Shown: positions 3,085 to 62,199 of the stretch, one piece after another | How positions within the stretch are numbered: the first letter of the stretch is position 1 | How the letters are laid out: every line of letters begins with the position of its first letter | Assembly (NCBI RefSeq): GCF_000143415.4 | Contig: NW_003314280.1 | Location: forward strand, 1,111,663 to 1,175,662 | Length of the DNA: 64,000 nt | DNA from: Selaginella moellendorffii | Taxonomy: Eukaryota; Plantae; Lycopodiophyta | Direction of reading: 5' to 3' | Translations under genes and position numbers: made by a program | The notes under the pieces: generated by a model | What the model was told of the DNA's origin: nothing | Database searches by the model: none | What the model saw: only the letters and a program-made list of their open reading frames with translations

Positions 3085-4398
3085 CCATTCTTCTTTCTTT
3101 CTTGCCAAGGAAGAGCTATTCCTCTTAGGGTTTGTCAAGTCCTTCGTTCTTTAAGATCGAGGCGGCAGGGGATATCACAGCCACAGCACTTCGGGCTTTG
3201 AGGCGTGCCCAAATGCCGCGAGCATCCAATACCTAGTTAGTAATTATATTTTGTTATAACAAAAAAACCTAAGTAATTATAGAAAGCTCCAGATTATTTG
3301 ACTTCAGACGCTTTGTTTTTTGACCAAATTCGTTAGAAAATGAAAATGCACCGTGCATCATCCGCACCTATATACTCACAAAATAAGATTCTCAAAAAAG
3401 CATTAAGAACTTTAGGGCTCTGCATTTGCAATTTATCAGTGAGATCAAGTTTTGACCACTATCGTTTTGCCTCAAGAAGAGCTGGCAATGCGGCAGGTGT
3501 ACCATCTCTTTTGGTTACTTCCAAGGCCTCCATCAACATATGAGCAACAAATGTGATTTATTTCTATGTTACACTCTTTTGACAGAAAGCAAAGCTTTGT
3601 ATTGGGCAAAACAACTTTAAGATGCCCATACATTGTCAACATTTTGAACACTTTAAAACTATGCAGGAATGAGTTTTCTTTTATCCTAATTTGAGATTCA
3701 TGACCAGGCCACCTTTCTTGGGTTTTGTTATTTGCCAAGGAGAAAGTACATGTAAGTATCAAGAAAATGTTGGACAAGGGTATTATCTAAAAGATGTGGC
3801 TTTAAATGTGTGAATTTCATCTTATTATGAAGCCTAATGGGAATGTTTGCTTCAACAGTAATTATCACCCATTAAACGAAGTGATTATCCCTAATGTATA
3901 TCTCTTTTGGAGTCATTAGTTTATCATAAGCCATGATTTATTCTCGTGATTGTCAAGCAAAATATGCCATCTTGTCTTGTTTCTTTCTCCTTTTTTATTT
4001 TGTTTTCTTTTTTGCAAGTGAGCTCTTCCTATGTTTGGTTACACCATACTCAAGCGACCTAAGTTCAAATTGCGGTAAATGCTAGTTGTTCAAGTTCTCA
4101 TCGTTCGCCCAGCTTCTACTTCGCTCTTGCGAAATCAAAAGAGCCACTGAAACACGAAACCCGAGAAGAATCTTTATAATTAATTCTTTCAACTATCAAC
4201 TTATCCAACTCAAGAACTCAAAAAGATGAAACCTCACTACGGGATAGATTTTGCTACTCGCACGCTTTTTCTCCCTCCGAGCTCACAAAGTCTTGCACTC
4301 CTGGATTAGCCAAGGTTCTCAACAACTTATTCGCCAATATTACCAGGGTTTTGGTTAGGGCTTAAACATCACGATTGCGCTAGGGCAGGAGCTTCACG

Positions 4399-15424: not shown

Positions 15425-15505
15425 TGTCAGGAATGGGATTCGAACCCATGCCCTTGCGGACTAGTACCTGAAACTAGCGCCTTAGACCAACTCGGCCATC
15501 CTGAC
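15425..15505 (-). tRNA. trnL-CAG: tRNA-Leu (anticodon CAG)
   Basis: GTCAGGATGGCCGAGTTGGTCTAAGGCGCTAGTTTCAGGTACTAG...GGTTCGAATCCCATTCCTGACA; long variable arm, downstream T-run terminator. Confidence 0.96.
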
Positions 15506-35552: not shown

Positions 35553-37058
35553 ATGCGCGTGAGGATCTCGTCGCCGCGCGGAGAGATCAGGTGGGCGCTA
35601 CCGGCATTGACGATTTCCAGAAATTTTTCCGGGAGGAGGCCAAGATCAGAGAGGCCGAGCGCCGAGGACGCCTGGAAGTGGACAATCCGGAAGAAGGTTT
35701 GGGATTTGGTCGCGGGCCAGAGGGTCGTCAAGAGTCCCAAGAACAGGACTCCAAACTTCGAAGGCGCAGCGATCGCAGCGCACAAGGTTTGTGAGTTGTG
35801 AATCGAGGATGACTTGGTTTCCTTATTTTTTTCCCCCTTTGTGCTCTTGAGCTAGGAGAGCTATCTGCATTTCGCGATGCCAAGGTCGTCAACGTTGGCC
35901 CAGAGGCCGCGCAGGCACCCGTGAGGCTGATGACTCTGAGAGGTAAGTATCTTACAACCATAGAAAACTAAAAGCCACTACTCCTTTTTATCCTTTGCAG
36001 AGAGGAAGAAGCTTATTGTTCCTTGTCTCAGAAGGCTTGTCAAGGAATTCCTGGCCGAGGTCGATCCAAACGACATGACTCAAGAAGAGTTGGATGATCT
36101 CACTGACGAAGGTAGTCTCGTTCTTCTCTCGAAAATGTTTAACTGCGGTGCGCGTAGAGCTTGGACTTCCAACTAAACCTTTGCAGCTCAGTCCAAAGGC
36201 AGCATTTGAGGTGGACCTCGTTGTTCTGGGATCCGTGGCTGTCGATCCAAAAACTGGAGCTCGTATCGGTGACGGCCAGGTGAAAAACAAAAAACAGAAA
36301 GAGAGAAAATGCAATGTCAACTTTACCTCTTTCAGGGCCTGGAGGACTTGAATTACGCATTGCTTCGCTACATGGAAGCCATAGACAGCTCAACCCCGGT
36401 GGTCACAACAGGTTTGCATTTGTGTTCGTTTTACGAAAAAGCAACTAGCATTTGTCCCAGTTCACGAGAAGCAGCTTGTGGATGATATCCCAGTGGAGAA
36501 GATGATGTGCTACGACGTTCCAGCGGATATAATCTGCACGCCTGAGAGGACCATCTTCACCAACAGAAGCTTTCTCAAGCCAGATGGTAACGAGAAACCC
36601 ATTTCTCCTCGTTAGCAACTTTGCGATCTACAGGAATTTTCTGGGAAAGCTTGCAACCAGAAAAGCTCAGCCGAATCCATGCTCTCCAAATGCTGAAAAA
36701 ATCGCTCCAGAAGGAAATGCGACTCCCAATGGCTCCGTCACTCACACTCGCAAAGCTCAAGCGCTCCTCCATCATCGACGAGCCTTGCATTTTCCTGTCG
36801 GAGCTCTGCCCGAGCGTCACCGAGAGGCAGCTCCGGCAGCACTTGGAGGACCTGGGGGTGACAGCTCGCAAAGTTTTGGTGTTTAAAGCCAGCAGGAAGA
36901 TCGTTGCTCGGGCTATGGTGGACGAGGAGAAGATTGATGCTTACGTGAAAGCTATCAACGCGAGCACGAGACAGCTCGATGGGTGGTCGATAAGAGCGAG
37001 AAGAGACTCCTCGGCGATTCGAACCAAAGCGCGAGAGAAAGAACCTCTTGGCGATTGA
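35553..37058 (+). CDS. MTHFSD: COG0212/MTHFSD-like protein with a C-terminal RRM, paralog 3
   Basis: [10 protein letters not shown]...[26 protein letters not shown]|[37 protein letters not shown]. Confidence 0.85.
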
Positions 37059-37330
37059 CCAAGATCCTTTCTTTAATGTACAGAGCTATATGCCGCCATG
37101 CATTTATACGAAAGTTCTCTCTTTGTTCTGGAATCTTTGATGAGAGGTGGTAGGGCTTTTCACTCGTCAACGATCGTTCGGCGTTCTTGGTGTTTGCTTT
37201 GCTTTGAGATCCTTCGGGATTCTTGTATAAAAATGCCGCTCGCAGTGATATTTCTCTGCTTTGCTCTTAGGCGAGGGCGGTTCTTTGGCTCTCTTTCTCC
37301 ATTTTCTCTCCTTTCCGATTCGCCACAGCG

Positions 37331-37790
37331 ATGTCCTTCTCCATTGTTTCAGTCCGCTGCAATATCTGTGGAAGCACCATGAACTACGACGAGGTGCAAC
37401 TGCAACAACACGCTAACATCTGCAAGGTAAGACTCTGATCGCCATTCCTGTTCGTTTTGTCAAAATCTTTCTTTTCTGTGCCGGGCCCTTTCCCTTTGGA
37501 GCATACTTCCCATGGAAGTGTAGGCACGCCGGAGCTACGCGACCTTCTGCATCTGGTCGGCGAGCCTCAGGCGAGCGAAGGATTGGAGAGGCTTCTTAAA
37601 CTCGCCCTTGGAAGAGAAGCGCCCAAGAGGGCGAGACTTTCGTGCCCTTCCGGCCTCACGCTCCCACCTCTGGCGCAGCCTGTAAGTGGTTTTCATTGTG
37701 ATGAGCAGGAGAGCGTTAGCACCGGGACTTTTGGTTTTCGAGAAGGAAGTTCTCTATCTAGCATGGCAGCTGAATTCTTTCAGAGCGGCT
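37331..37790 (+). pseudogene. Deleted duplicate of the zinc-finger gene at 38902 plus the DUR3 5' region
   Basis: VRCNICGSTMNYDEVQLQQHANICK|GT matches exon 1 of 38902; CTTAAACTCGCCCTTGG is shared; CGGGACTTTT...GGAAGTTCTCTA...CTAGCATGG matches ~40002-40095. Confidence 0.7.
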
Positions 37791-37811
37791 GATCGAGAGA
37801 AACCGCTCGCT

Positions 37812-38220
37812 TGCATTGTCCCAGTTCACGAGAAGCAGATCCCAGCGGGGAAGCGACGACGTTCCAGTGGATATAATCCCCACGGCCTTCCATCCTCCGC
37901 CGCTGCTACGCCCGAGAGCTTTCTCAGTAGCGAGAAACATAGTTCTCTTCTCTACTTAGCTTCTTTGTGATCTACAGGGGGGAAACCTACAGAAACTTGC
38001 AACCAGTGAAGCTCAGCCGAATCCACGCACTCGAGCGTCACCCAGAGGCAGCTCCAGCAGCGCTTGGAGGATCTGGCAAAGTTTTCGTGTTCAAAGCCAG
38101 CAGGAAAATCGTTGCTCGGGCTATGGTGGACGCGATGCTTACGTGAAAGCCATCATAACCCCCACTCTAATGTATGGAGTTATATGCTACCATATCCATT
38201 CATATGAAAGTTCTCACTTC
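37812..38220 (+). pseudogene. Eroded partial copy of the 3' half of MTHFSD paralog 3
   Basis: GTCCCAGTTCACGAGAAGCAG, ACGACGTTCCAG and AAAGCCAGCAGGAA..ATCGTTGCTCGGGCTATGGTGGAC match 36454-36960, with many small deletions. Confidence 0.8.
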
Positions 38221-38227
38221 GTGTGCG

Positions 38228-38632
38228 TACGACGTTCCAGCGGATATAATCTGCACGCCCGCATCTTCACCAACAAAAACTTTCTCAAGCCAGATGGTTA
38301 GTTCCCCTCTCTACCAGCTTTCGTGATCTCAGGAGGACTTCACTGGGAAAACTTGCGACCTCAGCCGAATCCCCGCGCTCGAGCGTCAGCGAGAGGCAGA
38401 GCTCCAGCAGCACTTGGAGGATCTGGGGGCGAGAGCTCGCAAAGTTTTGGTGCTCAAAGGCAGCAGGAAGATCGTTGCTCGGGCTATGGTGGACGAGGAG
38501 AAGAGTGATGCTTACGTGAAAGCTATCAACTCGAGCACGAGATAGCTCCATGGGTGGTCGACAAGAGCGAGCTCGGCGATTGACCAAGATCCTTTCTTTA
38601 ATGTATACATGCCGCCATGCATTTATATGAAA
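38228..38632 (+). pseudogene. Second eroded partial copy of the 3' end of MTHFSD paralog 3
   Basis: TACGACGTTCCAGCGGATATAATCTGCACGCC through GATTGACCAAGATCCTTTC matches 36511-37110, with frameshifting deletions. Confidence 0.8.
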
Positions 38633-42513: not shown

Positions 42514-42771
42514 TACGAAGGAAGAACAACACACCAAGTACGTAATTCTTTGTATGATTTCTCATTCCTTTCCAGGAGAAGTTTGTGATTAAAGTTCAAG
42601 AATAAGCTCGCTCGGCACCAAGTACGTATATAATGTTTGTTTCATACTTGTTCTTAATGGGAAAACCACACTTTAATTAAAGCTTTCTTGAGCTCACAGC
42701 TTCCACGTACGTATAAAGTTGATGATGAAAGCTTTCCTGAGCTCACAGCTTCCATTTTAGTTTTGCTTCTC

Positions 42772-43019
42772 TCATCCATCTCGCAGGAGCTCCTCCATGG
42801 GACGGACGTTCTCCAGCTTCCCTGGGTTGAGCATGGTCCTTTGTGGAGGGGCGGGGTCCTGTGGATTCAACTTGGTGCACAAGCAAGCGATTCGCATCGC
42901 CCGCTTCATCTCGGTTATCTAAATGCCGGGTTTTGGCCGAGAGTATCATCGCCGCCACCTTCTTCCCCTCCTCGCGCTGCTGGCTTGAGCAGTGTCGGGT
43001 CGATCCCCTTGAGCTCCTG
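42772..43019 (-). pseudogene. Decayed 3' fragment of the SOBIR1-like kinase
   Basis: QELKGIDPTLLKPAARGGEEGGGDDTLGQ matches the C-terminus of the RLK at 45745, with frameshifting deletions. Confidence 0.85.
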
Positions 43020-43286
43020 TGGATCGGTCGAAAGGTGCCAATGCCGTGGGCGAGACTCCGGAGTCTGGATCGTGGGTTTGACCCGGGAGAGGACTTTTGG
43101 ACTATTGGAGCCACAGGCAAGGATTAAAAGACGCATCACCATCTCATCGTGGCCATACGGCGCCAAATGTGTCGTCCGGTTCGCCAGATGAGCGATCGAG
43201 GAAACTTTAGACCAGAATCGAGGCTGGGAACTCTGGTTCTAAAGTTCCCTGGAAAGTTCCAAATTTTCCTGTGTGAGTGGAAAGGG

Positions 43287-45327
43287 ATGGGAGCCATGGA
43301 GGAGAGCACCGTCGCCGACGCTAGCACAACCAAGGTGAGGAATTTCTCTTGGAAGAAATTAAGGAGAATGGAAGACACATTGGTGCTTTCGACTTTGTAA
43401 GGATCTTGAAAATGGCTGGTCTGGAGATCTGGAGAAAGAGAGCTTCATCACAAAGGACGGCACTGTGGATTGGAAGAACAATCCTGCTGATAGGAGAACT
43501 ACCGGCGGCTGGAAAGCGTGTCCTTATATCTTGGGTGAGCAACAAAGAAACGAAACTGTTTGATATCTTGCTTGATCTTGCCTTGAACAGGAAACGAATG
43601 CTGTGAGAGGCTTGCCTACTATGGAATGTCCATAAACTTGGTGGTGTTTCTGACCGACAAACTCCATCAGCACAACGCGACTGCATCGACCAATGTGACG
43701 AACTGGTCTGGAACGTGTGACATCACGCCTCTCATAGGAGCTTTCTTGGCCGATGCCTACCTCGGTCGCTACTGGACGATCGCTGCCTTCTCTTCTGTAT
43801 ACTTTGTGGTAAGTTCTTCTTTCTCGACTTTCATAGCTTCGCAGCTAAAAGTTTGTTTTTCTTACAGGGAATGGTTCTGCTCACTTTATCAGCGTCAGTT
43901 CCATCGTTAAAACCACCGTCTTGTGTGGGGGACGTTTGTCCTGGGGCCTCGCCTGGTCAGATCGGATCATTCTATCTGGCTCTCTATCTGGTAGCGCTGG
44001 GCACTGGTGGAATCAAGCCTTGCGTTTCATCCTTTGGAGCAGACCAGTTTGACGACGAAGACCTCTCGGAGAAGAAGTATATGACTGTCTTCTTCAACTG
44101 GTTCTACTTCTCGATCAACGTCGGTGCCATGATCGCCAGCACCTTTCTCGTTTACATCCAGCAAAGCGTCAACTGGGCTTGGGGATTTGGCATACCGGCA
44201 GCAGCAATGGGAATAGCAATTGTGGGCTTCTTCATCGGGTCCAAGCAGTACAGGCACCAGAAACCAGGAGGAAGTCCGCTCACTCGGATCGCTCAAGTTA
44301 TCGTCGCAGCCATCCGGAACTGGAGGCTACGTCTTCCAGCCGACGAGACCATGCTCTACGAGGTCGACGGGAAGGCGTCCGCCATCGAAGGGAGCCGAAA
44401 AATCCAGCATACAGCAGAATACAGGTGAAGAAGTGCTCCTTATATATTTTTTGCGGGCTTCGCTTCATTCTAAGTTCTTGTGACTTTCGGTTTGAAAGTT
44501 TCCTGGACAAGGCAGCGATCGAGAACCAGTCGAGACCGACGACAAAGTGGAATCTTTGCACGGTCACTCAAGTCGAGGAAGTGAAGATCCTGCTACGAAT
44601 CGTTCCTATCTGGGCCAGCGTCATCGTCTTCTCCACAGTTTACGCTCAGATGTCGACGTTGTTCGTGGTGCAAGGCCTCAAGATGGACTACATCCTCGGC
44701 ACCTTCAAGGTCCCGTCGGCATCGCTCTCCATGTTTGACCCGCTCAGCGTGTTGATCTTGGTCCCGATCTACGACCGCCTGCTCGTCCCCTTCGTCCGCA
44801 AGTACACCGGCCATCCACAGGGATTCACGCAGCTCCAGAGGATGGGAATCGGTCTCGTCATCTCCACGATCTCCATGGTGGTGGCGGCGGTCCTGGAGAT
44901 CCAGCGTCTGCGAGTCGCGAGGGAGAAAGGCCTGGTGGATGCCGACGACAAGAACTTCCCGAAGCTCCTCAACGCGCAGCTCAGCATCTTCTGGCAAATC
45001 CCCCAGTACTTCATCATCGGGGCGTCGGAGGTGTTCACCTTCATCGGGCAGCTCGAGTTCTTCTACGAGCAGTCGCCCGACGCCATGCGGAGCTTGGGCT
45101 CGGCGCTGTCGCTGGCGACGGTGGCGCTGGGGAACTACCTCTCGAGCTTGCTGGTGACCATCGTTACCAAGATCACCCGGAGGGATGGGAAGCCCGGATG
45201 GATCGCCGACAACCTCAACCATGGCCACATTAACTACTTCTTTTGGCTCTTGGCAGCGCTCAGCGTCGTCAACTTTCTCTTCTATCTTTCATTCGCGTAT
45301 CGCTTCAAGTATAAGGAGACTAAGTAA
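43287..45327 (+). CDS. NPF8: NRT1/PTR family transporter, NPF8 (PTR1/PTR2-like peptide transporter), multi-exon
   Basis: [32 protein letters not shown] (ExxER), [45 protein letters not shown]. Confidence 0.93.
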
Positions 45328-45402
45328 AAGAAGATTGGCGACTAAGTAAAAGAAAAGCTTAACTGTGTACAGTGGCCTTTAGTCAACGTGATCTGGTCAA
45401 AG

Positions 45403-46011
45403 CTGCCCGGAGAGCTCATGCTGGTTCTCAAGGGGGTGTTTACGTTTAACAGCAGACGAAGAAGTCTCGCCAGACTGGTGTGATACGGATCGAAGGAAGA
45501 CCAACACACCAAGTACGTAATTCTTGGTATGATTTCTCATTGAGAAGTTTGTGATGGAAGTTCAAGAATAAGCTCGCTCGGCACCAAGTACGTATATAAT
45601 GTTTGTTTCATACTTGTTCTTAATGGGAAAGCCACACTTTAATGAAAGCTTTCTTGAGCTCACAGCTTCCACGTACGTATAAAGTTGATGAAAGCTTTCC
45701 TGAGCTCACAGCTTCCAAGTACGTATCGTTTAGTTTTTCTCCTCTCATCCATCTCGCAGGAGCTCTTCCATGGGACGGACGTTCTCCAGCTTCCCTGGGT
45801 TGAGCATGACGAGCACGTCCTTCGTGGAGGGGCGGTCCTGCGGATTCAACTTGGTGCACAAGCAAGCGATTCGCATCGCCCGCTTCATCTCGGTTATCTC
45901 GTCCAGATTCGCAAATCCCGGGGTTTGGCCGAGAGTATCATCGCCGCCACCTTCTCCTCCTCCTCGCGCTGCTGGCTTGAGCAGTGTCGGGTCGATCCCC
46001 CTGAGCTCCTG
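45403..46011 (+). repeat. Direct repeat copy B: decayed DUR3 3' end, intergenic DNA, intact RLK 3' end
   Basis: Near-identical to 42394-43019. Confidence 0.9.
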
Positions 46012-50592: not shown

Positions 50593-50966
50593 TGCCCGAA
50601 ATCCCTGCCAAATCCGCCGATTTAGACCTCCAATTGACCCCCAAGGCGGGCACTCGCGAATCGCGACTGCGCGATCCGGGCGTTTGCTTACCTCGAGATC
50701 AAGACGCTAAGCGATGGACGAGCGGATCAAAAGATAGCGAGGGAAGAACAGTAAACAGCGCTGTAGCTTTTATATTGCTACGTGTCCTCTTCCTTTTTTA
50801 TCTATTTTATCTCTGTCGCAGGCTCGGTTAAAGGCATGATCCAAATAACGCGCATTCTTTCTCCTTTACCCCACCGACACTTAAATCTCACATGGTTGGA
50901 AGACTTTGTTAGCGCCGCTGCTTAGCTAGCACTTAGCGGGAAAACCTTGCTTACAAGCAACATCAT

Positions 50967-51039
50967 GGTTCCATAGTGTAGTGGTCATCACGTTTGCTTT
51001 ACACGCAAAAGGTCGCGAGTTCGAAACTCGCTGGAACCA
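50967..51039 (+). tRNA. trnV-TAC: tRNA-Val (anticodon TAC)
   Basis: GGTTCCATAGTGTAGTGGTCATCACGTTTGCTTTACACGCAAAAGGTCGCGAGTTCGAAACTCGCTGGAACCA, a 73-nt cloverleaf followed by a T-run. Confidence 0.95.
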
Positions 51040-51890
51040 TTGAGGAAGATTCGATTTTTTCAGCCCTTCAAAATGGAGTACGTAAAAGGTCACTCGATTG
51101 TTGTTGGGTGAGGTACATGATCACTGCATTGATGGTTTTGGTGATGAATTTTTTATGAATATTTTAAGTGTTCTAGAGCTCGAAAAGAATCCAGCAAATG
51201 CCTCAGAATGTCATGGTTCATGAAACCAAAAATTTCTCTTTGCCTTTTGGGAAATGATAGAGCCACTAAATTTATTTGTGTTAGATTATGCTTTTTCATG
51301 ACTTCTTTAGTGAAGAATTTTTTATAAATATATAAAATATTCCAGTCAGTGTTTATTTTTGACTGTCAAACTCCAGTGTTGGAAAGCGATTCCAGCAAAT
51401 GCCCACTTTGGGGTGCATGGCACAAGATGCCTCTTCGTGCACAGTACAGAAAAGAATGCTAGATATCAAAGGAGCGAAGCGTATATTAAATCTGAAGGTT
51501 CCTCCAAGCTCGTGTCTTTTTGGACGGGATGGGGAAGGGCAGAAGGTTAGATTTCATCGATGTCTTCCTGCGATGTACTCTGGAAATTTTCTCTACCATT
51601 CCTTTCCGAGCAGATTCTTGCGCTCCATGAAGCTTGCCAGATTCTTGCCTTCCCTCAGCCGATCGGCATGCGCAAAGCTAGAATCAATGCTCGCATTTGC
51701 TATAATCGTTCTATCGGACAGATTTGATCGGGCAGCACGGGGGATGCCTCCCGATATGAGAATCCGTCATTTGAAATATCGGAATGCGGCTCGGTATCAA
51801 ATCCTCCTCCCGTCCCTTTGCCTTCCTGGCTCTTTGCCTCTTCCTTCCGGCCTCTTGTTCGTTTTAAACTGTGGTCCTCTAGATCGTATA

Positions 51891-52683
51891 ATGTTTTTTT
51901 CCAGGAAGAAAGGCGCGAAAAAGAAGAATAGTGGTGGCGGCAGTAAAAGCGATCCCGCCAAGAGCAGTGGTGGCGGCAATCAAAGTGATCCCTCTAGCGG
52001 CATTACAAGCAATCCCGCGAAGACCAGTGGTGGCGGCAGTAAGAGCGATCCCGCTAGCGGCAGTACCAGCAATCCCGGGAAGAGCAGTGGCGGAGGTGCC
52101 AGCAATCCCGCTGCTAGGGACAGTATCAACATTCCCGCGGCTAGCAGCAGCAGCAACGCAGCACTCCTCCTGTACGAGGATCCGTAAGTTCCTTGTCGTT
52201 CTTGACAATATCTTACTGGAACTGAATCTTCTCCTTCTTGCAGAGACCACAAGGAGCCGTTCCTAATTGCCATCCCCACACTCCCTGAAAAGACTCTATA
52301 CCTTCGGATGTATGACAATGGAAACGATTCCTTCCAGCATCTAACTTGGATTCCCTGACAGGAGGATCATCAACAAAGCCTTGTGTATGATCTTTACGAT
52401 CGTCTCTCTGACGCCCCAGATAGACAAAGAGCTATTCAAGGACCTGGCCAAGCATTTCACTCGCAAGTTCAGGGCGGACAGGGAAAGCGTCACCAAGGAG
52501 GACTACGTGATCTGGGCGTTCAACATGGGCCTGCCTTTCATGAAGAACAACAAGTCTCTGGCCGGGACCAACATCTACCTCAGGATTTGGATCCAACTAG
52601 GCTGGTACGTTGGTGTTCGCCGTTGGAGATCTGCGAGCTCGCTGTGGAGGAAGCACGGCGATGTTGACGCGAGATCTCCTTAA
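51891..52683 (+). CDS. Hypothetical protein: Gly/Ser repeat N-terminus plus an unrecognised ~100-aa domain, 3 exons
   Basis: ATG 51891; GT-AG introns at ~52184-52242 and ~52311-52361 join the exons in frame (..YEDP-DHKEPF..LRM-RIINKALCM..). The C-domain is similar to the ORF at 63171-63491. Confidence 0.6.
51930..52145 (+). repeat. Coding tandem repeat (SGGGSKSDPA/SNPA units)
   Basis: Repeated AGTGGTGGCGGCAGTAA.AGCGATCCCGC units. Confidence 0.8.
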
Positions 52684-53721: not shown

Positions 53722-55187
53722 GCACTGCCTCTTGTTGTTTGAAGATCAAGAAAATTTTACCATGCACGGGATCGGACGGCCGTGAGCATCTGCCTCCAAT
53801 TTGGGAGAAACGCGTTGCCACTGAACACATGTTAAATTCCTCACTCAACCAATGAACACTCAAGTGCTGCTCAGGACATCCGAAAAAAATTTTCTGACAA
53901 CCATGTCAACCAACCCTCCCTTGAACGACGGCTGTGGCAGTTTGGGAAACTGCTCCTGATGATGATGATGATGATGTTGATGTTGTTCTGAAGATCGGGT
54001 TTATAACTTTTGCTTATTAAAGCAGTGTCTTTGGATGACACACAAAAGTAGATGGTGGAACCAAGTTTGATGAAAAAGGTGGGAAAAACTTTGCAGCCAG
54101 TTTACTTTAGTGCATGTGCAGGTAATGTATTATTTCTTTACAGCTCAGAGAAGTATTTGGAAAGATAGAACTGAGACAAGCCAGATGCAAAAGAAGCAAA
54201 CACTTCCATCAGTATTCTATCATTTGGGCTTCAAGTTGAGGAAGTGGGTGGCATTAATCCAGTTCAGGACTTCGAAGCTTTGTTGGCTCGTTGTGCTGGG
54301 AAAGCACCTTTCTGAAGACATGACATTGCCTTGTTGTAAGTCTTTTCTTTTACGATGCTCCAGAAGATGATCTTCTTCATACCTTGCATTTATGTGATGC
54401 AAGAAGTGAGTGTTTTTCCAAGTTTTGGTTTTTGTTGCTTTAGAACTCCTCCTTTACATTTCTGCCACTACAGGAACCTGGAAAATTCAACAGTTTCTTC
54501 TGCCAACTATCAGAGAAGTGTCAAGGAAAGTGCCATGGGAAAGAATTCTAAGAGACCAACTTACATTCATCACAAAATAAGAAGCACATGACAGGTAAGT
54601 CTTTACTTTCATGACTTATAGTCATTTTACTTTTTTGCATCAGTGATGTAGAAGAGGATGATAAAACAGATATGTTAGCTGATTAACCACAAATAAAAAA
54701 TGTAATTCAGTTGTAATTGTAGTTTATTAATAAAAAATTTAGCTGTTCAACCATAAGATCTGGAATATAGCAAAAATAAGTTAATATTTATTTTAAAATT
54801 TACTATATTTAGATAAATATAAAATAAATATAATCAAGAATACTTTCAATGGATGTTGTTTACTTCTCCTACAAGTGTCATTTAATGTTAATTAGCTAAC
54901 TCAGAAAATATATGCCCTTCCACTAAAGCTACACTTTTATGTAACACATTTACAAATTCGTGGTTTAAATATAGTAATAATTGCAATAATAAATTTTTCC
55001 ATAAATACAAGCAAAAAATTGAATAGAAAGATATTAACATTCTAATTTTGAGGCTATCAAGTTATTATATTAGAACCATTAATTTATTGTTGTGGTTATT
55101 TTAACACTAATTTTGCAATATAAATAATATATAAGATAGTTAGGGAACAAAATTTTAAAGTGGCAGATATCTTAGTTAAATTAGTGG

Positions 55188-55361
55188 TGTGAGGGCCAAG
55201 TGTACGGCTACGATGCCGTATACTAATATTAGCGTAGTGGATTTTGGTAGCCGTCGGATTGGTTTCAATCCGGACCACTCGCTCCTGTATATAAGCTAGG
55301 GTTTTTGGGTTAATTGATATGCACATTTCTGTATTCCCTTTCTATATTCCATGCACTCACA
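55188..55361 (+). repeat. 5' LTR
   Basis: TGTGAGGGCC...CACTCACA; contains TATATAA. Confidence 0.97.
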
Positions 55362-55362
55362 T

Positions 55363-55378
55363 TGGTGGAGTTGAGGGG
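55363..55378 (+). other. Primer-binding site, tRNA-Ala-like
   Basis: TGGTGGAGTTGAGGGG, 1 nt after the LTR; resembles the complement of a tRNA-Ala 3' end (TGGTGGAG.TG.GGGG). Confidence 0.65.
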
Positions 55379-55594
55379 CACCTTTGATTGTCCCTGGGGA
55401 GTGCTTGGATGTGGGATTTCGGTTTAGATCTAGCTTTTGCATTGTCTAGATCTAACTTTTTCCATTTCCTTTCTTTTGTTCTTTCCTTTTAGGATTTTGG
55501 TTTAGATCTAGCTTTTTGCATTGTCTAGATCTACCATTTCTTTCTAGCTTTTTGTCATTTCTCTTCTTTTACTCTTTCTTTCTCATTCATTTTC

Positions 55595-56527
55595 ATGGCC
55601 GATCCGCAATCTCCTCCTTTGACTCTAGAGCAGCAGTTGGTTCAATTGCTTGATGCTATGCGCTTGCAATTGAACAACCAAACTCAGTTGATGGCAGCGT
55701 TCACGGCACATGGTACAACTCCTCTTGCTTTTGGTGCCAATCCTCGCGTTCGGCCAGAGTTCTTTTGTGGGAATCCTGGGGATGATGTGTACCATTGGTT
55801 CGATCACTTCACGGTGATTGCCACATATCATTCTTGGGATGATGCTCGACGTTTGCGTGAGTTCCCCACATGTCTTCAAGGGACGGCATTGCAGTGGTAC
55901 AATGGATTGAGCACAGCTACTCGTGGCGATTGGAGTGTTCTTCCGGACGTCTTCAAACGCGCCTTCGGACACGCCGACGATTGTGATGATGCCTTCCAAC
56001 AATTGCATCGTCTTCGCCAAGGGCCATCTAAGTCGGTGATGCAATTTGGCGTTCGTTTCCGAAGTCTTTTGCTTCGTGCGGAGCCAAATATGTCGGAGCG
56101 GATCAAGCTAGGAATGCTGTGGCCAGCACTTCGTCAAGATCTTGTCGGACTTGTGCATGCACTTGCTCCTGCCACTCTTGACGATGCTCTTCGCTTAGCA
56201 CAACGTTATGAGACGTTGCCTCTTCCACTTCTTGCTACACGTCCTTCAGCTCCACTTCCTATGAGTGATGGTCCTGTTCCCATGGAGGTTGATGCTGCTG
56301 CTACTCGAGTCCAAGGACAAGGGCGAGGACGTGGTCGTGGCCATGACATTCGTTGCTGGGCGTGTGATGAAGTTGGTCATACTTATCGGCGTTGTCGGCG
56401 CTTTCCGGATTGGCGACCTCCAGTTCCTGGGTGGAGACCTTGGCGTCAGCAACGTCCTGTTGGTGCTGCTGCGGTGGAAGGTTTGGATACCGAGGTGCAT
56501 TCGGGAAACGAGGAGTCGCGCGAGTAA
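55595..56527 (+). CDS. gag: Gag (capsid plus CCHC zinc knuckle)
   Basis: LQGTALQWY, LRQGPSKSV, PVPMEVD, CWACDEVGHTYRRC. Confidence 0.92.
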   Translation: MADPQSPPLTLEQQLVQLLDAMRLQLNNQTQLMAAFTAHGTTPLAFGANPRVRPEFFCGNPGDDVYHWFDHFTVIATYHSWDDARRLREFPTCLQGTALQWYNGLSTATRGDWSVLPDVFKRAFGHADDCDDAFQQLHRLRQGPSKSVMQFGVRFRSLLLRAEPNMSERIKLGMLWPALRQDLVGLVHALAPATLDDALRLAQRYETLPLPLLATRPSAPLPMSDGPVPMEVDAAATRVQGQGRGRGRGHDIRCWACDEVGHTYRRCRRFPDWRPPVPGWRPWRQQRPVGAAAVEGLDTEVHSGNEESRE

Positions 56528-56566
56528 TGGAGGGACCTTGCGCGAATAAGTTAGTGACCCCTCCAT
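56503..56566 (+). other. -1 programmed ribosomal frameshift signal: slippery heptamer plus H-type pseudoknot
   Basis: G-GGA-AAC at 56503-56509 in gag phase; stem 1 56516-56524/56537-56545; stem 2 56527-56534/56559-56566. Confidence 0.85.
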
Positions 56567-59500
56567 CTTTCTTTCGGGAGTATCATCAAGGGGTTCACTC
56601 GGCACCGGTTCATCCAGTGTTTACTTTCCAAGCTCGATTTTATAACAAGAGGTCTCCTATTCTTCTCTCCGTGTTGGTTGATACAGGTTCGAGTTTATCT
56701 TCTATTGCTCGACCTGTTGCCACACGTTGTCGTCTACACTTGCGTCGTGCAGCGGATCCAGTTTTCATTCTTTATGGCAACGGCCGTACACATGCATGTG
56801 CACGAGATGAGGCAGACCTGGTTGTGCGTGTGGGCGATCTCGAGCTTGAGTTGCAGTCGTTGCGGGTGGTGCCGAGTCAAGCTTTTGACCTCATTCTTGG
56901 TATGGATTGGTTGCAGCACAATCATGCCAAGTGTGACTTTGAGGCTTTTCCCCCTTGTCTCATACTTCCTTATGTTTCATCCATTCCTCTCACTTCCGTA
57001 CCTCTTCGTCCCTCTACTTCTACCTCTGCTTCCATTACTTTTGTTCCCCCATTATTTCCTCTTGTGTTTCCATTTTGTTCTGCTCTTCCCTTTTCCGATC
57101 CCTCCAATGATCTTTGTGTTGCAGCTGTTGACCAGCTCATGAAGGAGTATTCTGATCTCTTTGAATTTGACCTATCGTCTGGGGCCAAGATTGCCACACG
57201 TCATCCCATTCCAACCGGGGATGCTCGTCCAATCAAGGTTCCTGTTCGTCGTCGGTCACCCAAGGAGATCAAGATTTTACGTGCAAACGTCAAGGAGATG
57301 TTGGAGAAGGGTGTTATTCGGAAGTCGCGGAGTCCTTGGGCATGTGAACCTCATCTTGTGACGAAGCCTGATGGGAGTATTCGTTTTTGCATCGACTATC
57401 GTCCATTAAATGAAGTGACGATCCCGGACGTGTACCTTCTTCCTCACACTGCTGATCTCTTGGATCGTCTGGGGCGAAGTCGTTGGTTCACCAAGCTAGA
57501 TCTTGCTTCTGGGTATTGGCAAGTACCGATGGCTGAAGACGATATTCCTAAGACTGCTTTTCGTACACCATTTGGTTTGTACGAGTTTTTTGTGATGCCG
57601 TTTGGTTTGAACAATGCTCCAGCAACTTTTCAGCGGATGATGGACGAGGTTCTTTGCGATATGCCGGAGGTGACGGCTGACTTCATTGATGATGTCTTGA
57701 TCCACTCGGAGGGGACGTGGGAGGAGCATGTTCGTGATGTTTGTAAAGTGTTGGATCGGCTACGCGACGTTGGTTTAAAGCTGAAGCGGTCGAAGTGCGT
57801 GTTTGGGTCCAAGGACACAACTTATCTTGGGTACCGTATTTCTCGTGAGGGTTTGCAAGTTGATCCTGACAAACTTGTGGCTGTTCTAAAGTTCCCTACT
57901 CCGAAGTGTGTGAATGATGTGCAGCGTTTTTTGGGTAAGGTGCAGTATCTCGGTCGTTTTGTGGATCATCTTTCCGATCGCACTTTACCATTGCGAGCGT
58001 TGCTGAAGTCATCAACGTCATCTTTCATCTGGTCTCCCGATTGTGAGCGGGCGTTCGTGAATCTCAAAGAGCTATTGACGACTCCTCCGGTTTTGGCATA
58101 TCCTGACTACACTCGACCTTTTATTTTGCGCGTGGATGCTTCTGACATTGGTTTTGGAGGTGTGTTGATGCAAGAGAGCTCCAGCGTGCCTGGTCAGCGC
58201 CATCCCATTGCATACATAAGCCGTACATTACAACCAGCGGAGATGAACTACTCCACGACGGAGAAGGAGTGTTTAGCAGCAGTCTGGGGTTTCGAGAAAC
58301 TTCATGCCTATCTACATGGTTCTTGGACGTTACTTGAAGGTGACCATGCTGCTATTACTTCATTATTGAAGCGGAAGAACCTGGTTAGTCGTACGGCTCG
58401 ATGGGCTTTGAAGCTTCAGATATATGATTTCGATGTTGTTCATCGCCCAGGGAGTTCTATGGCTGATGCTGATGCCCTTTCTCGAGCTCCTCTTCCTTCT
58501 CCACTCACTTCTCATGTTTCTGACGAACCTGTTGTTCCAACATCTGTGGATTTTCTAGATGAGGATTCTGTGCCGTCGGCGGTTGCTGTCCTTGACGTTC
58601 AGTGTCCACAGGGCGTAGAGCAAGATCTACCTTCTCTGGATGAGGTTCGCGAGGCTCAAAAGATTGAGCCGTGGATTCGAAGGCTTCGAGATGGGTTTGA
58701 GAATCCTGCATCACTTGCTGATGACTTGCCTTTTCGGCATTTACATTCTCAATATCGCCTTGAAGATGGCCTTCTTTATTTTGTGGGGACAGATCCTGAT
58801 GCTCATTTACGGCTGGTGGTGCCTTCGGTGTTTATTCCGCGGTTTCTCCATACCTACCATGATTCTCCTATTCTAGGTGGGCATATGGGACACCGTCGTG
58901 TCACCAAGAAGCTGCGCAGATCTTTCTATTGGCCAGAGATGCGATGTGATATTATCCGGTATGTGCGTAGCTGCGTTTGGTGCCAAGCTCGTAATACTCC
59001 CCCTTGTGCTGCGGAAGGACAGTTGGAGTCAATTGCAGTTTCTCGTCCGTTTGAGTTGGTGGCATTTGATCTTATGGGACCTTTTCCGCGATCGACTGCT
59101 GGCAATGAGTATGTTATTATTGCTTCTGACTACTTAACTCGTTGGGTGGAAGTTGGTGCTCTTGCTAGTGCCTCTGCAACTGCTGTTGGATACTTCCTCC
59201 TCAATCGAGTGGTGTTCCAGCATTCTTGTCCAGAACAGATTCTTTCGGATAATGATCCTGCATTTATGGCTGAGGTATTTCATGTTTTGACATCTTGGTT
59301 GGGGATACGCCACACTTTTACGAGTGCTTATCATCCACAATCAGACGGTCTGGTGGAACGGCTCGTTCGGACATTCAAAGGGATGATTGCGAAGTATGTG
59401 AACTTTCAACATTCGGATTGGGATGGTTATTTGCCGTCTCTTCGGTATGCTTATGTCACAGGGGTGCAGAGTTCTGTTGGTGCTTCACCATATAAACTTC

Positions 59501-59991
59501 TATATGGTCATGATCCAATATTACCAATAGAGCTGGGTTTACCTTCGCGATTGCCACGAGCTCCTGATGCTAGGTCATGGGATCAATATTTGACAAGCAT
59601 TCTTCCACTTGTCCGAGCAGAGTCTGCTGAACACTTAGGCCGCATACAAGTGGGACAACAACGGCGCTACAATTCCCATCATCGTCCACCAGCGGAGTAC
59701 AAAGTGGATGATTTGGTGTTAGTCCGTTTTCCCCATCTTACGGTACGTGGTTTATCTAAGGGGCTCCTTGCGCAGTGGAAAGGACCATATCGGGTGTTGC
59801 GGCAAGTTGGACCACAAGTTTATGAGGTTCGGCATGACGTTCAGCAGGCCAATCCTCCGGAGATTGTGCATGTGCAGCGGTTAAAACGCTTCATACAAAA
59901 GGATCAGGAGCAATTAATACCGTCTACAGATCCACCGATGCCTCCTCCTGATGTTCCTCCAGATCCCGGCCCATCTACAAGAGAACCCTGA
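56503..59991 (+). CDS. pol: Pol polyprotein (protease, RT, RNase H, integrase), in the -1 frame relative to gag
   Basis: LVDTGSS; MPFGLNNAPATFQR and FIDDVLI; VDASD and EKECLA; HDSPILGGH..CVWC, SDND, HPQSDGLVER, WKGPY. No chromodomain, no internal stops. Confidence 0.95.
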   Translation, partial: GKRGVARVMEGPCANKLVTPPSFFREYHQGVHSAPVHPVFTFQARFYNKRSPILLSVLVDTGSSLSSIARPVATRCRLHLRRAADPVFILYGNGRTHACARDEADLVVRVGDLELELQSLRVVPSQAFDLILGMDWLQHNHAKCDFEAFPPCLILPYVSSIPLTSVPLRPSTSTSASITFVPPLFPLVFPFCSALPFSDPSNDLCVAAVDQLMKEYSDLFEFDLSSGAKIATRHPIPTGDARPIKVPVRRRSPKEIKILRANVKEMLEKGVIRKSRSPWACEPHLVTKPDGSIRFCIDYRPLNEVTIPDVYLLPHTADLLDRLGRSRWFTKLDLASGYWQVPMAEDDIPKTAFRTPFGLYEFFVMPFGLNNAPATFQRMMDEVLCDMPEVTADFIDDVLIHSEGTWEEHVRDVCKVLDRLRDVGLKLKRSKCVFGSKDTTYLGYRISREGLQVDPDKLVAVLKFPTPKCVNDVQRFLGKVQYLGRFVDHLSDRTLPLRALLKSSTSSFIWSPDCERAFVNLKELLTTPPVLAYPDYTRPFILRVDASDIGFGGVLMQESSSVPGQRHPIAYISRTLQPAEMNYSTTEKECLAAVWGFEKLHAYLHGSWTLLEGDHAAITSLLKRKNLVSRTARWALKLQIYDFDVVHRPGSSMADADALSRAPLPSPLTSHVSDEPVVPTSVDFLDEDSVPSAVAVLDVQCPQGVEQDLPSLDEVREAQKIEPWIRRLRDGFENPASLADDLPFRHLHSQYRLEDGLLYFVGTDPDAHLRLVVPSVFIPRFLHTYHDSPILGGHMGHRRVTKKLRRSFYWPEMRCDIIRYVRSCVWCQARNTPPCAAEGQLESIAVSRPFELVAFDLMGPFPRSTAGNEYVIIASDYLTRWVEVGALASASATAVGYFLLNRVVFQHSCPEQILSDNDPAFMAEVFHVLTSWLGIRHTFTSAYHPQSDGLVERLVRTFKGMIAKYVNFQHSDWDGYLPSLRYAYVTGVQSSVGASPYKLLYGHDPILPIELGLPSRLPRAPDARSWDQYLTSILPLVRAESAEHLGRIQVGQQRRYNSHHRPPAEYKVDDLVLVRFPHLTVRGLSKGLLAQWKGPYRVLRQVGPQVYEVRHDVQQANPPEIVHVQRLKRFIQKDQEQLIPSTDPPMPPPDVPPDPGPSTREP

Positions 59992-60008: not shown

Positions 60009-60023
60009 GAGAGGAGGGGATGA
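60009..60023 (+). other. Polypurine tract
   Basis: GAGAGGAGGGGATGA immediately before the 3' LTR. Confidence 0.85.
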
Positions 60024-60197
60024 TGTGAGGGCCAAGTGTACGGCTACGATGCCGTATATTAATATTAGCGTAGTGGATTTTGGTAGCCGTCGGATTGGTT
60101 TCAATCCGGACCACTCGCTCCTGTATATAAGCTAGGGTTTTTGGGTTAATTGATATACACATTTCTGTATTCCCTTTCTATATTCCATGCACTCACA
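60024..60197 (+). repeat. 3' LTR
   Basis: Matches the 5' LTR apart from 2 transitions seen by eye. Confidence 0.97.
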
Positions 60198-62199
60198 GTG
60201 GGGATATTATTTAGAATATAGAAAAAATTAAAAATTGAAAAAAGTTATTATTTATTTTAAAATTTACTATATTTAGAGAAACTAAAAATAAAAATTAATT
60301 AATTTTATACTATTTTTATGTATTTAAATTCATATATATATATAAATGAATTGTGGTCATTATTTTAAATGAATTTTATTTTTTATTTTATTTTTATATT
60401 TACAAGGTTTTAAGGAGAACTAATTTATATAAGGTTATTCATATCTAGCAAAATCTAAATAAATATTAAATAATTTTAAATTTTATTATATTCCGAACAA
60501 TATTGTCTTTGCTTCTTTCACATACATAATCATTTTGACATTATGGTTCAACCAAGATACCTGCTATTTGAAACTTTATTCCGTGGGTTAGTCAACAATT
60601 TTATATATTGTTAACATTACAAAATTAACATTAAAGTAACCACATAATAAATCAACATTTGGAATGAAAGGATTCACTTATACTTTTTTCTATATATAAA
60701 ATTCATAAATAAAATGAATTATGGTCATCATTTTAAGTTTATTTTATTTCATTTATTTGTCATTTTCACAAGTTTTTTAAGGAGAATTAGTTTAGATTGC
60801 AAATCACAATGGTAATTTGCCCAAGAATTGCTACATCTTTCTGTCATAGGCATCTTAGAACTCCTGCAGGTAACTGCATAAGAAACACTGGTATGAACTA
60901 TCTCATGAATTCTCTCTTCCTCACTGGGATAATGAGTCCATTGGAAAGTTTTTTAAGCCCTTGCACTTGTTCAGTGCTGCTTGATATCTATCGTAGGATT
61001 CCTTACCAAGCTTGTCTTCAGGCTTCAGCCTACAGCTATAGAGTCTGCAAAATGGACAAAATATTGATTGGCTCTATCTTGAACTTTTGGGAACATTTTT
61101 GGGTACATCACAGTGAAGAACAGTGTTGTGACGACAAGTCAAGGACGTCACCCTTGGCCTCCACCAAATCTCTTGGTACCCACAGCTTGCGACCATTTAT
61201 TTCCACTTATGCAAACAAAAGACGATCCATCTTCCATTTCTGGGCAAAAAATCAGTAAATCAGTAAGTCGCTGAATCCCCATGTTCAAGAGAACTCTCCA
61301 GAGCCTCAAACTTAACTTGTCCAGGATGTCCAGGTGGGCTCGTTTCCAGCAGAATGTCGAGACCATCAACCCTTTTCACCACAAAATATCGCACTGCACT
61401 ACTCGATTAGCATAAACAGCATGCAATATACTTAATTAACGCATATCTCTGGTTTAGCTCAATAAATCCCGCAACGATACGCGAGGTCTGTCATTTTCTT
61501 CGCCATAAGCTTTGACTGGAAATATGTTCTTCAGCATGCGTTCGAACTTGAATGCCTTGGTGACCACCGTGCGGTTAAGTTTCGCCTCTTGCCCAAGGTC
61601 CATCTTATTGTTAGATGGCATCCCTTCCTCCACCTGCATTGCACTTGTCAGGAAACAAAAAAAAAAAAAAAAAAACCAACAAACAGTATGTGACACTACC
61701 TCCATGAAAAGCCCCTGCCATTGATGAGACTCTTTTGTGGCTTGATTTGGTGGACACCTCAGGATCTTCTTTTGCGGCTATGGTTAAACCCGCCTTGCCC
61801 AGTCCCTAGAAAACAAAAGCATGATCTTCTAAACAAATTCTGTCAGTACCTTCGCCTTTCGTGTTTTGCTAGGAGCAGGCCTAAGAGCAAGTGTTTGCTC
61901 TTCTGCCTAGTCAGGCGTTTTCTCAGTGTTCTGGAAACAATATTACTTCATTTCCTGGAAACGATTTCAATTTACCTCTTCAGAAAGTCTATCTATTTTA
62001 TAAGCTTAGCTTCTACTTCACTGTCGTCCTCGTCGTCAGATATTTTCCTTTTCTTTGCTGAAGCAATCTCAACCATCTTAATAGTAATCTGAACAAGTTT
62101 TCCTTTAAGCACGATTCAGGTTTTCTAGAAACCACATCAACTTAACGTTTTTGTTTTTGCTGGTATAAGATCATGTGATGACTCATATTTTCTAACGTT

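Follow-up and report, generated by a model that had tools for sequence, protein, structure and literature searches.

Structure and classification of the element

The window (the whole stretch of 64,000 nucleotides that was analysed) carries on its forward strand an LTR retrotransposon of 5,010 bp, flanked by a 4-bp target-site duplication, GTGG, which precedes the 5′ LTR (55184..55187) and is found again directly after the 3′ LTR (60198..60201). The two LTRs measure 174 bp each (55188..55361 and 60024..60197), and the 5′ LTR has TG...CA ends. The core of the primer-binding site, TGGTGGAG (55363..55370), is presumably of the tRNA-Ala type, to judge by its likeness to the acceptor stem of that tRNA; no tRNA-Ala gene lies within the 64-kb window. 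A polypurine tract occupies positions 60009..60020. Between these landmarks there are two open reading frames (ORFs): gag (55595..56527), which encodes 310 amino acids with a capsid domain and one CCHC knuckle (Pfam Retrotrans_gag, E 6.9e-11) and ends in a TAA at 56525-27, and pol (56371..59991), a frame of 1,206 codons that is open from 56371, lies at −1 relative to gag and contains, according to Pfam, the protease, reverse transcriptase (RT), RNase H and integrase domains. The LTRs, the target-site duplication, the primer site and the polypurine tract, together with the domain order GAG-PR-RT-RH-INT, are those of a Ty3/gypsy LTR retrotransposon, and neither a chromodomain nor an extra ORF was found in the element by Pfam and ORF analysis. 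The phospholipase D encoded next to the element shows 100% identity with a protein of Selaginella moellendorffii. The element is an intact Ty3/gypsy retrotransposon of this species, and its insertion is recent, given that its ORFs are intact and that its LTRs differ at only 2 of 174 positions. No other copy was found in the window except for a short RT-like fragment (3746-3907). A 48-bp duplication (55414-55460 and 55492-55539), whose two parts are 92% identical, lies in the pyrimidine-rich leader that separates the primer site from gag.

The REXdb classification describes a non-chromovirus Ty3/gypsy lineage named Selgy, with 4-bp target-site duplications, lengths of 4432-6724 bp (mean 5,044 bp), a tRNA-Ala primer and, in 65% of the intact elements, an overlap between the gag and pol frames (Neumann 2019; PMC6317226). 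The element described here shares with Selgy the S. moellendorffii host, the 4-bp duplication, a size of about 5.0 kb, a primer site that is presumably of the tRNA-Ala type, the lack of a chromodomain and the overlap between the GAG and PROT-RT-RH-INT frames. By host, size, target-site duplication, presumed primer type and overlapping ORFs it fits Selgy and is a probable member of that lineage, which REXdb defines formally by a clade of the RT-RH-INT tree. Two differences deserve mention. The available text of PMC6317226 gives the overlap, but no direction of the shift, slip site or RNA structure; and it calls Selgy species-specific, whereas the sister clade described below, with the same primer site and the same cassette, looks like that of another plant. 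Membership of the Tcn1 chromoviruses was considered and rejected, as the element has no chromodomain, a 4-bp rather than a 5-bp duplication and a tRNA-type primer site instead of a self-priming one.

The gag/pol junction

The gag and pol frames overlap by 157 nt, and GGGAAAC (56503..56509) is the sole strict slippery heptamer within the overlap. It begins on the third base of a gag codon, so that it is read in gag as G_GGA_AAC, in the X_XXY_YYZ phase, and in the −1 frame there is no stop codon from the slip site into the enzyme domains; entry into pol would take place at 56509. This heptamer is counted among the most shift-prone (Atkins 2016; PMC5009743). A second heptamer-like site at 56479 was dismissed, as its first triplet is imperfect and the structure that follows it is weak. 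The gag stop codon overlaps a pol-frame ATG, forming a UAAUG (56525..56529) that extends from loop 1 into the first bases of stem 2 in the structure described next.

The heptamer is followed by a spacer of 6 nt (56510..56515), inside the usual range of 5-9 nt between heptamer and stimulator (PMC5009743), and then by a predicted H-type pseudoknot. Stem 1 pairs 56516..56524 with 56537..56545 through nine base pairs, one of them G-U, and its 5′ arm has pair probabilities of 0.87-1.0 in the nested ensemble. Stem 2 consists of eight Watson-Crick pairs between 56527..56534 and 56559..56566, and the loops measure 2, 2 and 13 nt. A preliminary description of this stretch, made from the sequence alone, had pointed to GGGAAAC in the correct gag phase with pol at −1, to the 6-nt spacer, to a 9-bp stem 1 with one G-U and to an 8-bp stem 2; all of these were recovered at the same coordinates by the ORF analysis and the pseudoknot finder. 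Two features had escaped it, the AUG that overlaps the gag stop and a nested helix that competes for the 3′ arm of stem 2 (see below).

The strength of the pseudoknot was evaluated with a custom-written finder, whose energies are stacking sums without loop penalties. On this scale the 90 nt after the heptamer reach −35.4, against a mean of −7.2 and a best value of −27.3 among dinucleotide shuffles, and an equally strong H-type pseudoknot appeared in none of 3000 shuffles, which excludes a chance origin. The site also ranks first among the 464 strict heptamers present on both strands of the window (the runner-up scores −27.4). A search of Rfam over 56300-56800 gave just two snoRNA matches, both at chance level (E 1.3 and 1.9).

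Proposed mechanism

The arrangement of these elements suggests how Gag-Pol could be produced. The heptamer and the predicted pseudoknot would make a fraction of the ribosomes slip back by one base: the ribosome would pause when the pseudoknot, beyond the 6-nt spacer, reaches the mRNA entry channel, at which point GGA occupies the P site and AAC the A site; both tRNAs would then re-pair on GGG and AAA, and translation would go on in pol to yield a Gag-Pol protein of 1,465 amino acids. The remaining ribosomes, which would be the majority, would stop five codons later and release the 310-residue Gag. As only a minority would slip, Gag would continue to outnumber the enzymes, which particle assembly requires. 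The steps of the slip are borrowed from the established biology of −1 programmed frameshifting, while the frames, the phase, the complementarity and the conservation are direct observations. GGGAAAC is the annotated slip site of a plant polerovirus and is used there on plant ribosomes (PMC5592212), so that these would be expected to respond to the same heptamer in the retrotransposon. We read the junction with considerable confidence as a −1 frameshift signal, composed of a slippery heptamer and a predicted pseudoknot, that would give rise to Gag-Pol, and on its sequence features the cassette is very probably functional in this role. The sequence evidence supports the pseudoknot-stimulated recoding that the preliminary description had put forward.

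Variation among copies in the same species

Copies of the element were examined as contigs from three DNA runs of one S. moellendorffii sample, aligned to 56330-56760 at 80% likeness, with 8056, 7960 and 3756 copy records per run. The only indels listed are three 1-nt deletions, all of them 3′ of the gag stop and each below 5% of depth; the overlap itself has no listed deletion, and no abundant class of copies carries an indel that fuses gag and pol into one frame.

Substitutions were inspected among the 40 best-supported of 125 rows. None of these falls in the heptamer or in the 6-bp core of stem 2, and five fall elsewhere in the cassette. Two of the five, at 56518 and 56520 in stem 1, are CpG transitions (CpG decay) present in 11-17% of copy depth, and two are in loop 3 (11-35%). 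The fifth, 56528 T>C (8-22%), breaks an outer pair of stem 2 and removes the pol-frame AUG; no compensating A>G was seen among the same 40 of 125 rows for run X1. This variant would be less damaging than it seems, given that the outer two pairs of stem 2 are often absent in the relatives described below. On the 5′ side of the heptamer, 8 of 13 non-CpG variants (from the same 40 of 125 rows) occupy gag third positions, an excess with a post hoc p of 0.035, although CHG decay may account for part of the 13; it is as expected if gag alone is read there. At 56423 (G>T) and 56637 (A>T) nearly all other copies differ (around 100% of depth), and for this reason both are probably private mutations of the present insertion. 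One RNA run, of which about 12% was sampled, gave 1 read on 431 bases.

Relatives and conservation of the cassette

Relatives were sought in metagenomes, where at least 546 loci were confirmed and the best 80 were taken further. Of these 80, 25 come from one contig series and constitute what is called here the sister clade (L001-L015, L017-L020, L022, L023, L029, L043, L051 and L056). In a quick IQ-TREE run over 748 pol columns, with 50 pol sequences chosen from 146 long matches, the 14 members with a long enough pol formed one clade with P0010 (support 100), and this clade was sister to the Selaginella element plus P0001 (SH-aLRT 97), P0001 being the nearest relative, with 48% pol identity. 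A shorter FastTree of RT-RNase H returned the same grouping with a support of only 0.31. In a set of 1.84 billion proteins, the gag match ranked second has an ending similar to that of the L020 gag, which belongs to the sister clade; a search of viral contigs returned no relative.

The sister clade is diverse and Selgy-like, with short LTRs and primer sites presumed to be of the tRNA-Ala type: the start of such a site, TGGTGG(A), was found near the end of the 5′ LTR in 9 of the 16 members examined. L013 is flanked by a P450 (L013:6277-7470), and the four best relatives of this protein with a solved structure all come from plants. Judging by these primer sites and the plant-type P450, the clade probably resides in a plant that is not S. 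moellendorffii.

The architecture of the junction is retained in this clade: in 18 of the 25 loci pol is at −1 relative to gag and a heptamer stands in phase. Eleven of the heptamers are GGGAAAC, six GGAAAAC and one GGGAAAT (consensus GG(G/A)AAA(C/U)); they end 3-18 nt upstream of the last base of the gag stop and represent 10 distinct cassettes. The seven loci in which this arrangement was not called are of several kinds: L014 and L051 have the motif by pattern search, in L017 and L019 the junction shows 89% likeness to that of L001 with no intact ORF pair called, L029 begins inside the junction, and L023 and L043 are without the motif. Compared with the Selaginella cassette, only 19-24 of the first 45 bases match.

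A bulge-tolerant finder, written after seeing the data, predicts a pseudoknot in all 10 distinct cassettes; no more than 9 of 200 shuffles equal it in any of them, and in six none does. A perfect-helix finder had missed the bulged stems of the relatives, and a looser one gave some non-classical folds. The two stems were compared by different means, given that loop 3 varies in length: an unfitted, ungapped alignment was used for stem 1 and not for stem 2. In the former, two-sided changes occur at six of the nine pairs of stem 1, a number reached in none of 500 shuffles, with the caveat that in comparisons of this kind kin sequences can outscore shuffles without any structure. Only 63.6% of the cells pair in this alignment, as the inner pairs of the relatives are out of register. 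For stem 2, 10 sequences were tabulated in a register fitted to the structure, with L001 omitted, as its stem 2 is in a different register. With the register so fitted, the GG of stem 2 lies 19 nt past the heptamer in all 10 sequences, 60 of the 60 cells of the core pair, and A-U/G-C swaps occur in three core columns and one outer column. The preliminary description had named two findings at the sequence level that would speak against it, namely sister copies with gag and pol in a single frame and sister copies without conserved pairing. On the first the evidence came out in its favour, in the form of the copies within the species, which show no abundant frame-fusing indel; on the second, frame, heptamer and pairing are all preserved in the relatives, the last with compensatory changes.

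Outside the sister clade, the bulge-tolerant finder returned a pseudoknot in seven of eight distant elements with a heptamer, and none in L057. Distant Ty3/gypsy elements with UUUAAAC, UUUAAAA or GGGAAAC and predicted pseudoknots at their gag/pol overlaps include L021, L041, L052, L061, L062, L076 and L079. By these observations, the combination of heptamer and predicted pseudoknot is widespread among Ty3/gypsy elements.

Alternative explanations

The nature of the stimulator is the point on which a different reading can best be argued. The nested minimum-energy fold of the region consists of stem 1 and a predicted helix between 56550-62 and 56589-603 (56550..56603; −16.9 kcal/mol when 56546-56610 is folded alone), which would occupy the 3′ arm of stem 2 and is mutually exclusive with it. 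A crude estimate that includes penalty constants places this fold and the pseudoknot at nearly a tie (−29.5 against −28.8 kcal/mol). The −1 shift could then take place at the same heptamer with the stem 1 hairpin alone as stimulator, the 3′ arm of stem 2 being mostly captured by the downstream helix; in a variant of this idea, the two folds might interconvert and tune the rate. Hairpins can stand in for a pseudoknot (PMC3203594), and the class of copies with 56528 T>C is without an outer pair of stem 2. Against this, the stem 1 hairpin amounts to just −12.6 kcal/mol and closes a loop of 12 nt, the core of stem 2 is free of variants among the best-supported rows, and stem 2 is retained with two-sided changes across the sister clade. 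Furthermore, none of 10 relatives has a comparably strong helix over the stem 2 arm, the folds being judged by reading: for nine of them the values range from −0.2 to −6.5, and that of L011, a hairpin of −18.1, begins only past the arm. A hairpin acting alone is, on this evidence, unlikely. The helix at 56550-56603 could still tune the frequency of frameshifting in the Selaginella family, as far as the predicted folds indicate.

The two remaining explanations dispense with the slip, and both match the comparative data poorly. In one of them, Pol would be made separately, by termination-reinitiation or leaky initiation at the UAAUG, and the heptamer would be incidental. Stop-start signals of this form occur in some RNA viruses, and the pol-frame AUG that overlaps the gag stop lies 51 codons upstream of the protease motif. 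This AUG, however, is absent in 8-22% of copy depth, and among the nine relatives tabulated a Met is present at that position in only two (L012 and L022), where it does not overlap the stop. A free Pol would also be without the Gag part that is normally used for packaging, and the conserved heptamer, its phase and its spacer would be left unexplained, all of which makes this route very improbable.

The other, which is hardly credible, takes the frame break as decay of a single-ORF element, or gag and pol as joined by splicing as in Ogre, with the cassette arising by chance. A single ORF, which the preliminary description had noted for many plant LTR elements, is indeed the state of most seed-plant Ty3/gypsy lineages in REXdb, and an intron is used by Ogre (Neumann 2019; PMC6317226). 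The junction studied here also has a GT that resembles a donor (56495) and two AGs that resemble acceptors (56554 and 56617). The latter, however, have weak pyrimidine tracts (44% and 61%), no abundant frame-fusing class is listed among the copies, the same architecture recurs in 18 of 25 sister-clade loci, overlapping frames are the state of 65% of intact Selgy (PMC6317226), and chance is ruled out by the 3000 shuffles.

Comparison with known frameshift signals

The frameshift signal proposed for the Selaginella element has counterparts both in viruses and in genes derived from retrotransposons. Slips of this sort are also well known from retrotransposons of animals and fungi. The gag-pro signal of SRV-1 and the P1-P2 signal of poleroviruses share with it an X_XXY_YYZ heptamer, a short spacer and a classical H-type pseudoknot (PMC3203594; PMC5592212; PMC5009743). 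These signals are viral, whereas that of Selaginella is genomic, and polerovirus pseudoknots are described as very compact, whereas the stems predicted here have 9 + 8 bp. The mammalian genes PEG10, PNMA3, PNMA5 and Rtl3/Zcchc5 carry GGGAAAC at the end of the gag frame, followed 5-8 nt downstream by a structure that is usually a pseudoknot, as in the Selaginella element (PMC11299033; PMC5009743). They differ in being domesticated genes in which frameshifting has been measured, whereas the Selaginella element is a mobile, high-copy plant element known from its sequence. The heptamer-pseudoknot arrangement is the standard design of the Ty3/gypsy-derived PEG10/PNMA genes (PMC11299033), and this, together with its presence in seven of the eight distant elements, makes the Selaginella locus a clear example of the design and not a one-off.

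A parallel in the same host is SM-Tcn1, a chromovirus of S. moellendorffii (PMC2864245). Inspection by eye of the published record shows pol at −1, an in-phase GGGAAAC at 1539-45, a 6-nt spacer, an 11-bp stem (1552-62/1573-83) and a second stem of 7 bp (1565-71/1617-23). SM-Tcn1 differs in belonging to a chromodomain-bearing lineage with a 5-bp target-site duplication and no tRNA primer site. The word "frameshift" is absent from the main text of that publication (Novikova et al. 2010; PMC2864245). The presence of the same design in SM-Tcn1, as judged by eye, renders the Selaginella locus less unique and the phenomenon more general.

Novelty and implications

The overlap between gag and pol in Selgy is known (PMC6317226). 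What would be new, as far as the literature found goes, is a −1 signal proposed for such an overlap in a land-plant retrotransposon; judged by its sequence, the Selaginella signal is of the canonical −1 class. The open-access literature searched yielded no account of an LTR retrotransposon of land plants with a −1 signal made of heptamer and pseudoknot, and subscription papers, Repbase or REXdb supplements 1 and 3 may hold one; the available portions of PMC3350952, PMC2864245, PMC4408406, PMC6696364 and bioRxiv 10.1101/2022.06.16.496473 describe no such signal. A survey from 2003 (Gao et al., as cited by Atkins 2016; PMC5009743) recorded only two types of plant element with split gag and pol, both of them +1, and REXdb later noted that the frames overlap in Selgy and Tcn1, with no mechanism given in its available text (PMC6317226).

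It is rather likely that pseudoknot-dependent −1 frameshifting is ancient and lineage-wide in the Ty3/gypsy elements of non-seed land plants. On this reading a homologous cassette would run through a Selgy-like lineage present in Selaginella and in one or more further plants, and the unrelated Tcn1 chromoviruses of the same genome would use the same design. If this is true, land-plant genomes carry many endogenous −1 signals that were missed by the last survey cited, and the common single-ORF state of seed plants is one strategy among several. The locus and its relatives would supply a concrete mechanism for the overlap, with natural compensatory variants, and would provide an endogenous plant −1 signal where studies now rely on viral ones. 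Annotators would have to treat a frame break of this kind as programmed instead of counting it as decay. As the mechanism is a textbook one, the surprise is moderate.

Other features of the window

Elsewhere in the window there are two tRNA genes, tRNA-Leu(CAG) on the reverse strand (15425-15505) and tRNA-Val(TAC) on the forward strand (50966-51040). Local duplications with 172-nt and 63-nt repeats are located at 36.8-38.6 kb (36829-38571), and repeats that are 93-97% identical and spaced roughly 3 kb apart at 42.6-46.0 kb (42576-46011). A degenerate tandem repeat of 60 nt (51901-52116) maintains an open frame and would encode a low-complexity stretch rich in Ser and Gly.
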